A stretch of 4,171 nt of DNA from a virus (lineage: Duplodnaviria > Heunggongvirae > Uroviricota > Caudoviricetes): the IMG/VR virus record IMGVR_UViG_3300029476_000079, one strand, 5' to 3'. Shown here piece after piece: positions 1,631 through 4,171 of the stretch. The notes beneath the pieces were generated by a model. It was not told the origin of the DNA. It ran no database searches and saw only the letters and a program-made list of their open reading frames with translations. Position 1 is the stretch's first letter. Each line of letters starts with the position of its first letter. Made by a program: the position numbers and the translations under genes.

Positions 1631-3175
1631 ATGACCACTATAACCAAAGAGCGACTGCTGACAATCAAGCAGTGGCGCGAAACATACGGACCGGGTAGCA
1701 ACGTTGTACTGCCAGCAGAAGAAGCGGAAGAACTGGCACGGATTGCACTGGCATCATTGGAAGCAGATCCAGTTAAACGAGTTAACTCAGATCAGATGCA
1801 CCGAGTCTGCTTAGAAGCTAATCGCTATTTAGATAAATATGACGCGATGGCGAAAGAGGTAAATAAGTTGCTTGGACGCATCGCCCCGCCAGCGCCAGTA
1901 TTTAACGGCGAATACGGTGACGCATATCAGGGCGCTCGTGAAGACCTGTCCATCTGGAAACGGCGAGCGCTTGAAGCTGATGAGCACGTTCGGCGACTGG
2001 AGCAAATCAATGACCACATGGTGAAAGAGGCGCAGGGAGAATCACGCATGGGCGAGCCTGTAATACGTGAGCCAGCACCGGTAGTGCCTGAAGAAGCAAC
2101 TCCGGAAAACGTAGAAATGCTCTCTGGCTATGTTTCAACGTACAAATTAACCGATAGCGAGCGCGATATTGCTGCCGAAATATGGAACGCCTGCCGCGCC
2201 GCCATGCTTCAGTCCGGAAACTTTCGGGAAAACAAGAATTCGTCAACCAATAATTTTCGGGAAATCGCGGAAACGTCAACCAACTATCCGGCAATTCCTA
2301 GTGAGGTGTTGTCCGCAATCCTGAAGGTTGCCAGGATTCGTGCCGATTTCGATGATTTTGACGGTGACAGGCGAGGTATCGGTGATTGTCTGGATGAGGC
2401 CGAGCAAGAGCTTATCGTTACCATTAACAAATATGCCAGTCAGTTGGCAGCAGAACCGATAGCGACTAATGACGTTCGAGAGCAAACAGCCGTTCCGCCA
2501 ATACAGGCTGATGTCGCGCAAGCAATTGAAAATCTCAAGCAGAAGTTAGTGGAATGCAATCGCTATAACTACTGCGCAGATGCAGTGAAGAACGTAGAGG
2601 ATGCCTGCCGTGCTGTTAGCTATAGCCAAGCCGACAATCAGCCAGCATCTGGCAACCAGGCTGCCGAATCCAATCGCGGTAATGAGTGGACTGGCAATCC
2701 TGATATTGATAACGCCATCATCATGCTCGACCGCATAGATACGCTGGAAAATTGCGATGATGACCGTATTGAGGCTGTTAAGGCTGTTTTGCGTAGACTG
2801 GCAGGCAACTATCCGGATATTCCGGATAGTTCGGTGCCAGCACCAGGAAAGGGCGTCACCGGTGAACGTATCCGAATTAAGCCGCATGTTTATCGCGAAC
2901 TGGTTAACCGTCTCCACGATACAGCGATCAAGTGTGCTGGCACCCAGCAATTACGAGAAAGAATTAGCCGTGTTTTGGGCGACGTTATTACACCAGATCA
3001 TCATAAACAAGCCGAGAAAAGTGGCCTGGAAAGGTGTCACCTTGAGGCGGCATTAAACATTAAGCCGGGGCATACGCTTGGCATTATTGATGCACTATTG
3101 GTTCATAAGATGGCCAGGGCTTTATTGCCGCTGGTGGCTGAAAAGCATGAGGCGGACCATGCCAACGAAAGCTGA
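1631..3175 (+). CDS. Large hypothetical protein, 514 aa, rich in Asp/Glu/Ala/Asn, with an internal 11-aa tandem repeat and an acidic DFDDFDGD cluster; function unknown
   Basis: ATG 1631 preceded by AAGGAG (1619-1624) at 6-nt spacing. A 1545-nt uninterrupted ORF, the longest in the window, makes all antisense track ORFs inside it implausible. No catalytic motif confidently recognised. Confidence 0.8.
   Translation: MTTITKERLLTIKQWRETYGPGSNVVLPAEEAEELARIALASLEADPVKRVNSDQMHRVCLEANRYLDKYDAMAKEVNKLLGRIAPPAPVFNGEYGDAYQGAREDLSIWKRRALEADEHVRRLEQINDHMVKEAQGESRMGEPVIREPAPVVPEEATPENVEMLSGYVSTYKLTDSERDIAAEIWNACRAAMLQSGNFRENKNSSTNNFREIAETSTNYPAIPSEVLSAILKVARIRADFDDFDGDRRGIGDCLDEAEQELIVTINKYASQLAAEPIATNDVREQTAVPPIQADVAQAIENLKQKLVECNRYNYCADAVKNVEDACRAVSYSQADNQPASGNQAAESNRGNEWTGNPDIDNAIIMLDRIDTLENCDDDRIEAVKAVLRRLAGNYPDIPDSSVPAPGKGVTGERIRIKPHVYRELVNRLHDTAIKCAGTQQLRERISRVLGDVITPDHHKQAEKSGLERCHLEAALNIKPGHTLGIIDALLVHKMARALLPLVAEKHEADHANES
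2219..2284 (+). repeat. Imperfect in-frame tandem direct repeat, 2 x 33 bp, inside the 514-aa CDS
   Basis: aactttcgggaaaacaagaattcgtcaaccaat (2219-2251) versus aattttcgggaaatcgcggaaacgtcaaccaac (2252-2284), 25/33 identical. Encodes NFRENKNSSTN / NFREIAETSTN. Confidence 0.6.
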
Positions 3176-3443
3176 ATTACAGGTGCGCGTAGATGAGCTT
3201 GAAAAAGAGAACGCGAGCCTCAAAAAAATGCTGTCGCGGGCGGAAAGGGAATTATCAGGCAAATTATTGCCAGAAGAACTGCCACCAGCAGATATACCTG
3301 ATCGAGTGTCCTGGTGGATGAAGTATTTCCGTGCACCGTGGGAGGCGTTTTGGTGCTACGACCATCGCAGATGGTGTGATGAACTTGATAGCAGTTTTCC
3401 CTACTTTGCGGAAGGGAACACCTGCCCTCAATGCAGGGGATAG
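3159..3443 (+). CDS. Hypothetical small protein, 94 aa: N-terminal coiled-coil-like segment plus C-terminal four-Cys zinc-ribbon-like motif (C-x6-C-x15-C-x2-C)
   Basis: ATG 3159 preceded by GAGG (3149-3152) at 6-nt spacing. Overlaps the stop of the 514-aa gene by 17 nt. Ends at TAG 3441-3443. The track's longer start at 3078 has no SD and lies inside the upstream gene. Sequence MPTKAELQVRVDELEKENASLKKMLSRAERELSGK...WCYDHRRWCDELDSSFPYFAEGNTCPQCRG. Confidence 0.6.
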   Translation: MPTKAELQVRVDELEKENASLKKMLSRAERELSGKLLPEELPPADIPDRVSWWMKYFRAPWEAFWCYDHRRWCDELDSSFPYFAEGNTCPQCRG

Positions 3444-3501
3444 CATTTGACGAAATCGATCACCCTATCCTGAACTTCAGAAAGAAGGTCTTTTTCACGC
3501 G

Positions 3502-3529
3502 CCAGGACGTCAGGATATTGACGTTCTGG
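3502..3529. repeat. Imperfect inverted repeat (10-bp arms, 8-nt loop): CCAGGACGTC-aggatatt-GACGTTCTGG
   Basis: Arms are complementary at 9/10 positions; the mismatch would be a G-U pair in RNA. Lies about 60 nt downstream of the last operon gene. No U-run follows on either strand, so it is not a canonical intrinsic terminator. Confidence 0.35.
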
Positions 3530-3810
3530 CCTTATCAGATGCCGGAGCTTCCCATTAAGCAGAATGGCCTCAGAAAACACTTTTACGCTGTGCTTTATCC
3601 CCTCTGTTTCACTTTTCAGCGTCAAAATAAAGCGCAATTGCTTATTAGCCTGATTCGGATTCAATACACGAATTTGCAGTTCGTCTATGCTGTTTCGCAA
3701 TGGGATTGATGCCACCACACTGGTGCAGTCTCTGATTGTCTGAATTGAACGGCTAACATTGAGAACGTTATTGTGCATGTGCCTGATCCACTAACTCCTG
3801 GAGGTTTCTT

Positions 3811-3957
3811 GTGTCAGATCGAAATATAGCAGCTAAAAGCCAGGAAGAGCGAGACAAGGTGAACGTAGACCTTGCCGCCAGCGGCGTTGCTTACAAACCC
3901 CGCTTTCACAAACTATGCCTTTTCAATGTATACTGTGTGAATAAACAGTATCATTAA
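3811..3957 (+). CDS. Candidate small ORF, 48 aa (MSDRNIAAKSQEERDKVNVDLAASGVAYKPRFHKLCLFNVYCVNKQYH)
   Basis: GTG 3811 preceded by GGAGG (3800-3804) at 6-nt spacing. Open to TAA 3955-3957. The 3' third overlaps the promoter and LexA box of the downstream gene. Too short to judge by composition; below the ORF-track length cutoff. Confidence 0.25.
   Translation: MSDRNIAAKSQEERDKVNVDLAASGVAYKPRFHKLCLFNVYCVNKQYH
3905..3934 (+). promoter_or_regulatory. Candidate sigma70 promoter for the UmuD'-like gene: -35 TTCACA (3905-3910), 18-nt spacer, -10 TATACT (3929-3934)
   Basis: Hexamers resemble TTGACA/TATAAT. The -10 overlaps the LexA box, the usual layout for SOS-repressed promoters. Identified by eye only. 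Confidence 0.4.
3931..3950 (+). promoter_or_regulatory. LexA operator (SOS box) TACTGTGTGAATAAACAGTA
   Basis: Exact CTGT-N8-ACAG core with flanking TA...TA, matching the consensus TACTG(TA)5CAGTA. Lies 17 nt upstream of the ATG of the UmuD'-like gene. The E. coli umuDC operator, as I recall it, is TACTGTATATAAAAACAGTA. Confidence 0.8.
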
Positions 3958-3967
3958 GGTAAAACGC

Positions 3968-4171
3968 TATGGGCTTCCCTTCTCCTGCGGCGGATTATGT
4001 TGAAAGCCGTATTTCTCTTGATCAGCAACTAATCAGACATCCTTCAGCGACCTACTTCATGCGGGCGGCAGACAGCCATCACCGTGAGGGAATATTGCAA
4101 GGTGCTTTGCTGGTGGTTGATTCCTCACTTACTCCGGTTGATGGCTCACTGCTTATATGCGCTATGGAGGG
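3968..4171 (+). CDS. umuD: UmuD'-like (HumD-like) peptidase S24 family protein, 3'-truncated by window end; natively lacks the N-terminal arm of UmuD
   Basis: ATG 3968 with AGG (3957-3959) 8 nt upstream. Translation [68 protein letters not shown] aligns to E. coli UmuD residues 25 onward ([68 protein letters not shown]). In-frame stop at 3938-3940 with no start codon between it and 3968, so the protein genuinely begins at the Cys24/Gly25 cleavage-site equivalent. Confidence 0.85.

Follow-up and report, generated by a model that had tools for sequence, protein, structure and literature searches.

The open reading frame (ORF) of 48 codons found at positions 3811-3957 (+ strand) of the stretch of viral DNA analyzed here (4,171 nucleotides, referred to throughout as the window) is very probably a pseudogene, i.e., the 3'-truncated remnant of hot, which is the P1-family homologue of theta (HolE) of DNA polymerase III. 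A decayed remnant had been offered, in the first-pass annotation, as the alternative to a small protein missed by annotation, and it is this alternative that holds, given that the ORF is made up of the 5' third of hot, its codons 1-29, joined through a 217-bp deletion to the promoter of humD. The ORF rises above chance only owing to these 29 codons, which are a real gene fragment.

The window belongs to the P1/D6/RCS47 group of phage-plasmids, according to BLAST comparisons with annotated phages and plasmids. The Hot protein of P1 is described in PMC2528190 as able to replace theta in the stabilization of epsilon, and the suppression of dnaQ49 is also cited for it in this source, with HOT structures, both alone and with epsilon186, being given as known in PMC3664792. 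The title of Chikova and Schaaper (2007), as cited in PMC4713147, places the expression of P1 hot in both lysogenic and lytic growth, and the same source cites McLenigan et al. (1999) for HumD as a functional homologue of UmuD'.

The ORF and Its Translation Signals

The ORF opens with a GTG at 3811 and closes with a TAA at 3955-3957, as read from the sequence. A Shine-Dalgarno (SD) motif, GGAGG (3800-3804, + strand), is located 6 nt (TTTCTT) before this start codon, and the coordinates first reported for the ORF, its start, and its SD are all confirmed. Alignment of the intact hot alleles of RCS47, KpINF277, MSB1_8B, and JS316 reveals an identical GGAGG in each of them, which identifies this motif as the native ribosome-binding site of hot. 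Both the GGAGG and the GTG of the 48-codon ORF are translation signals that belong to hot.

The position of the ORF directly 5' of a UmuD'-like gene, which had also been described from the outset, is borne out by the presence of a humD-like ATG at 3969, the product of which matches Peptidase_S24. The 3' end of the ORF does overlap the -35/-10 elements and the SOS box, although the extent of this overlap had been put at approximately 15 codons and needs to be corrected, given that the -35 opens within codon 32, and that 17 codons at the end of the ORF are therefore shared with the promoter and the operator.

Identity of the First 29 Codons

The surviving 5' part of hot covers codons 1-29 (3811-3897, + strand), including the merged copy of a TACAAA repeat, and is recognized by its protein identity with the Hot of RCS47, by PF06440, and by the HOT structure in the PDB. 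In the protein alignment, residues 1-29 of the ORF are 100% identical to residues 1-29 of RCS47 Hot, beyond which the two sequences diverge, with the remaining 19 residues, PRFHKLCLFNVYCVNKQYH, being unrelated to Hot. The Pfam family PF06440 (DNA_pol3_theta) is matched with 42 bits (E=8e-11), above its gathering score of 34.6, although the match covers only positions 3-31 of the 70 positions of the profile, whereas the intact RCS47 Hot covers positions 3-67. Among the solved structures, the best match is HOT itself (PDB 1se7/2ido, E=1.8e-11, over residues 1-33), and the E. coli theta is the next after it (E=3e-6).

Theta and HOT are three-helix proteins, of which a lone helix is unlikely to fold or bind by itself. 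The ORF has the sequence match that places it with the theta/HOT family, but not the complete domain of approximately 70 residues with all three helices. Given that only positions 3-31 of the 70 in the profile are matched, and that the divergence begins after residue 29, the ORF is filed here, on the evidence of its sequence, as a putative hot pseudogene or gene fragment, and not as a functional member of this family. Any 48-residue product would keep less than half of the small three-helix theta domain, and is most likely non-functional for this reason.

Origin through a 217-bp Deletion

The nucleotide alignment of the window with the intact alleles contains a clean gap of 217 bp, with TACAAA at both edges in the parent, and the flanks of this gap are 100% identical to those of RCS47, KpINF277, and MSB1_8B, that is, to the alleles of RCS47 and of Klebsiella and E. 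coli plasmids. In the BLAST comparison, RCS47 matches the window in two pieces, with a span 217 bp longer. The deletion junction of the window retains a single TACAAA (3892-3897, + strand), whereas the intact alleles have two copies with 211 bp between them (217 bp start-to-start). In the RCS47-type alleles, one of these copies is found at codons 28-29 of hot and the other is located 7 bp 5' of the -35 of humD, and what was lost with the deletion comprises codons 30-83 of hot, its stop codon, and 52 bp of the spacer. Intact hot genes with identical flanks thus occupy this locus in relatives, and a discrete lesion accounts for the truncation.

The RCS47-type arrangement consists of an 83-codon hot, a 124-bp spacer, and humD. 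A second intact type, found in JS316 and RHBSTW-00177, has a different, shorter spacer in which the distal TACAAA is absent, and this identifies the parental allele of the deletion as one of the RCS47 type. This second class of intact alleles (pRHBSTW-00177_3 and the JS316 plasmid) also has a different Hot C-terminus (...YQKEDIAKK), and its hot-humD spacer, as far as the -10/LexA box, is unrelated and shorter by 25 bp, which shows that P1-like plasmids exchange the region upstream of humD in a modular way.

An ancestor with the RCS47-type arrangement very probably lost 217 bp between the two 6-bp direct repeats, TACAAA, and we infer, from the signature left by this repeat, that the loss occurred either by replication slippage or through a microhomology-mediated deletion. 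The translation signals of hot were kept, and the frame, past codon 29, crosses the -35, the -10, and the LexA box of humD by accident, to end at the first in-frame stop, which is 11 nt before the humD ATG. The humD promoter and its SOS operator are intact, and humD should thus stay under the control of LexA, with the overlap between the ORF and the operator being, in all likelihood, a side effect of the deletion rather than a regulatory design.

The humD Promoter, the LexA Box, and the Tail of the ORF

The tail of the ORF (codons 30-48 and the TAA, 3898-3957, + strand) corresponds to the promoter region of humD, in the reading frame that was set by the deletion. This region holds a sigma-70-like promoter (3905-3934, + strand), formed by a -35 TTCACA (3905-3910), an 18-bp spacer, and a -10 TATACT (3929-3934), which obtained 10/12 matches in the promoter scan, with the same site being found in RCS47. 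The LexA (SOS) box, TACTGTGTGAATAAACAGTA (3931-3950, + strand), has its core, CTGT-N8-ACAG, at 3933-3948, which is the one site of this type in the whole window, and the P1 sequence aligned with this box is annotated as a LexA binding site. The predicted LexA operator is thus placed over the -10 of a sigma-70 promoter, 5' of a umuD'-like gene, as is expected of an SOS promoter.

Beyond this operator, the 5' part of humD (3969-4171, + strand) encodes a UmuD'-like protein of the S24 peptidase fold (Pfam PF00717) and runs off the end of the window, and the gene is annotated as humD or UmuD-like in D6, RCS47, and P1. The SD of humD, AAGG (3956-3959, + strand), overlaps the stop codon of the remnant, with the ATG at 3969.

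The 19-codon tail is in itself unremarkable, and its frame is arbitrary, or accidental. All three of the frames past the junction meet a stop before humD, with that of the ORF being merely the longest. In the intact alleles, a TAG interrupts the tail frame eight codons ahead of the sequence shared with the window, and this frame lacks a start codon. The conservation of the reading frame in homologous regions had been named as the test of a small protein, and its outcome goes against this reading, not only because the frame is closed and startless in the intact alleles, but also because the nucleotide homology of P1 to the window starts, in this region, only at ~3921, with none upstream, and because one relative, the IMG/VR contig designated L018, is frameshifted. 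Frame conservation beyond the clonal deletion lineage was not found.

Two single-nucleotide polymorphisms (SNPs) are located in the tail. The first, an A-to-G change at 3937 that is private to the window, falls on position 7 of the LexA box, which reads TACTGTGTG... here versus TACTGTATG... in the relatives, given that D6, RCS47, P1, and all the other relatives examined have an A at this position. No exact match to the window over 3898-3990 was found among the PLSDB records. The box of the window agrees with the TACTG(TA)5CAGTA consensus at 16/20 positions, or 17 with the common A3937, and the G3937 might slightly weaken the LexA repression of humD. The second change, G-to-A at 3956, converts the stop of the remnant from TGA to TAA and the SD of humD from GAGG to AAGG. 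As A3956 also occurs in some plasmids with an intact hot (e.g., p1_000837, NZ_CP032875.1), it represents a polymorphism of the humD region, possibly moved by recombination.

On the minus strand, a weak promoter-like site (3941-3912), which is formed by TTCACA, an 18-bp spacer, and CATAGT (9/12 matches), overlaps the LexA box and faces away from humD, antisense to the hot remnant. The LexA box of P1 is annotated as serving the divergent lxr, whereas the window has no lxr, and this site may therefore be due to chance.

Distribution and Further Decay of the Deletion Allele

The junction was searched for with a 44-nt probe, which extends 19 nt to each side of the hexamer, and of which the intact alleles share at most 25 contiguous bases, so that they cannot seed a megablast match to it. 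This probe matches 25 records of non-mobilizable plasmids of ~75-170 kb, of which 15 come from E. coli and 10 from Salmonella, and the same junction is present in 11/5,426 complete E. coli genomes, always on plasmids. It was also found in four IMG/VR contigs by an exact-pattern scan, and phage D6 carries it too. Given that ~99 PLSDB records have the orf106-hot-humD backbone over at least 80% of a 772-bp query, the deletion allele is a minority form.

The remnant is an ordinary one, publicly annotated already as a pseudogene, and its RefSeq/PGAP entry carries a pseudogene flag with the description 'DNA polymerase III subunit theta; incomplete; missing C-terminus'. The idea that a small protein had been missed by annotation at this position does not stand, considering that the ORF is annotated in D6 as a theta subunit and marked by PGAP as a pseudogene.

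The 48-codon frame is kept in all the copies of the deletion allele that were examined, except for L018 and the indel-ridden pSa1423-160k, and the presence of this frame and of the strong SD, intact across the E. coli and Salmonella copies, counts against the pseudogene reading. The deletion alleles differ from one another at only 2-5 sites in ~200 bp, a level of divergence at which a dN/dS-style test is without power to detect selection.

A further disabling lesion is found in a single one of the four IMG/VR contigs, L018 (IMGVR_UViG_2778261462_000002), in which an extra 13-bp frameshifting deletion within the remnant (equivalent to approximately 3867-3879 of the window) leaves a 38-aa ORF with a different stop, 17 nt upstream. 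This contig has also undergone a 573-bp deletion (equivalent to 3218-3790 of the window), which removed most of a 94-aa ORF and the whole of orf106, with both of these lesions being found in the region 1340-1480 of L018. These additional deletions indicate that the remnant can decay further, and the interval from pmgU to humD looks, from the alignments, to be prone to deletion in the L018 lineage. The 1-3-bp indels that are scattered over the ~240-bp aligned region of pSa1423-160k are probably sequencing errors, and were not counted as decay.

Surrounding Genes and Mosaic Structure

The window is a mosaic, for which the top PLSDB matches are split into 5-8 pieces, with no plasmid of this database reaching a coverage of 80% at a single place. 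A 116-aa ORF (3428-3778, - strand), for which no Pfam match was found, is divergent from hot, with the two start codons only 32 bp apart, and is conserved in D6 (orf106) and RCS47 (p0100). In the D6/RCS47 backbone, this ORF is directly 5' of hot, at a position where P1 has upfM-upfO and the late promoter LPhot. Further upstream, a 514-aa ORF (1631-3175, + strand), also without a Pfam match, is located roughly where D6 has its PmgU-like gene (360 aa), and is much longer than this gene. The ORFs of 214 and 155 aa are interrupted by runs of N at 735-770 (36 bases) and 1110-1152 (43 bases), which correspond to masked or unresolved sequence. An Rfam scan of 3400-4171 returned a match to mir-67, which was rejected as sub-threshold (25 bits vs a gathering score of 53) and biologically irrelevant.

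Alternative Explanations

The alternative that survives best, although still very unlikely, is that of a regulatory upstream ORF, in which transcription from the hot promoter would cross the LexA operator, and the translation of the remnant would couple HumD to hot, resulting in a LexA-independent HumD. The ribosomes on the remnant would, in this case, end 11 nt before the humD ATG, atop the SD of this gene. The geometry agrees with this, given that the stop at 3955-3957 overlaps the AAGG at 3956-3959 and is 11 nt from the ATG at 3969, and the allele also persists in more than 25 plasmids, in two genera. On the other hand, a search of the hot-humD interval of the intact allele detected no intrinsic terminator, and read-through would not, therefore, be a new property of the deletion allele. 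The frame after the junction is arbitrary, all three frames stopping before humD, and the stop of L018 was moved 17 nt upstream by the frameshift in an allele that still exists.

There is also the question of what would transcribe the remnant, given that the search of this backbone revealed no hot promoter. The promoter scan of the + strand over 3400-3810 returned no sigma-70-like promoter for the remnant, which does not exclude its expression, and the -22 element of the P1 late promoters, AAGTNACTT, was not found near the remnant, the only match with one mismatch, at 1865, being at the level of chance. In the part of the spacer of the intact alleles that the deletion removed, no terminator was detected either, which indicates that no obvious transcriptional barrier was lost. 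As there is no detectable terminator in the intact alleles and no detectable hot promoter, and the stop is found at a different position in L018, the interference of read-through with the operator is unsupported. The claim of the first-pass annotation that an unannotated small protein, through its translation or through read-through, disturbs LexA repression is left without support.

Translational coupling through the stop that overlaps the humD SD is also considered highly improbable. More doubtful again is that the deletion allele would have been kept since the hot translation unit, when fused to the operator of humD, provides an additional, LexA-independent way of expressing HumD (UmuD'). 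If this were true, read-through and the termination-reinitiation of translation at the stop over the humD SD would enable the phage-plasmid to supply the activated mutagenesis subunit outside SOS.

It is extremely unlikely, in turn, that the 48-aa chimeric peptide is functional, for example, as a Hot helix-1 fragment that binds the epsilon proofreading subunit, or as a new hydrophobic peptide. Its SD is strong and ideally spaced, and residues 1-29 hold the most conserved motif of theta, DKVNVDLAA-GVA-K. A single-sequence AlphaFold model predicts two helices, at 11-23 and 30-46, but its confidence is low (pLDDT 63, pTM 0.31), too low for the model of this product to be used. Only 29 of the 70 profile positions are left, and it is general knowledge that theta and HOT have three helices, of which one alone would hardly fold or bind. 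The tail, moreover, is not conserved as a coding sequence elsewhere, with one relative being frameshifted, and both of its SNPs fall in the regulatory sites of humD (the LexA box and the SD), which means that the sequence of the tail serves humD rather than a peptide.

Finally, the view that both the open frame and its SD arose by chance, without a genic origin, for which the short length of the ORF (48 codons) and its 19 accidental last codons might speak, is refuted almost beyond doubt by the identity of residues 1-29 with Hot, the PF06440 match above the curated cut-off, the PDB matches, and an SD and start identical to those of the intact hot genes at the same locus.

Significance and Comparison with Known Systems

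As a truncated hot, the ORF carries little biological weight, with a tempting SD-led small ORF over an operator proving to be, in all probability, the stump of a known accessory gene. A minor point is that Hot has been lost from a sub-lineage of the D6/RCS47-like phage-plasmids of E. coli and Salmonella, in agreement with the view that theta-like proteins are dispensable. For the screening of small ORFs, the case illustrates that a truncated gene can leave behind a perfect SD and start codon, and that candidates should be compared with the full-length alleles at the same locus before they are called new.

In the P1 family, hot is found at this same locus, directly 5' of the SOS-regulated humD and of phd-doc. 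The first 29 residues of the ORF, which match RCS47 Hot in full, are nearly identical to those of P1 Hot, and its start context and SD are of the RCS47 type. It differs from Hot in the absence of codons 30-83 (profile positions 32-70) and in its C-terminal 19 residues, which come from the humD promoter. The LexA box and the humD start of the window are homologous to those of the divergent lxr-humD SOS region of P1, in which lxr is found on the opposite strand between hot and humD, whereas lxr is absent from the lineages of RCS47, D6, and the window, in which hot adjoins the humD promoter.

Orf107 of phage D6 (YP_009914784.1), for which the annotation reads 'DNA polymerase III theta subunit; similar to P1 gene hot', has the junction and the 48 codons of the ORF described here, and the two products differ at one residue (V43 in the window vs M43). 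The pseudogene marked by PGAP in D6-like plasmids (e.g., NZ_CP122828.1) also shares its junction and its ORF with the window, which differs from the D6 type in the private or rare SNPs G3937 and A3956 and in a different mosaic of upstream genes.
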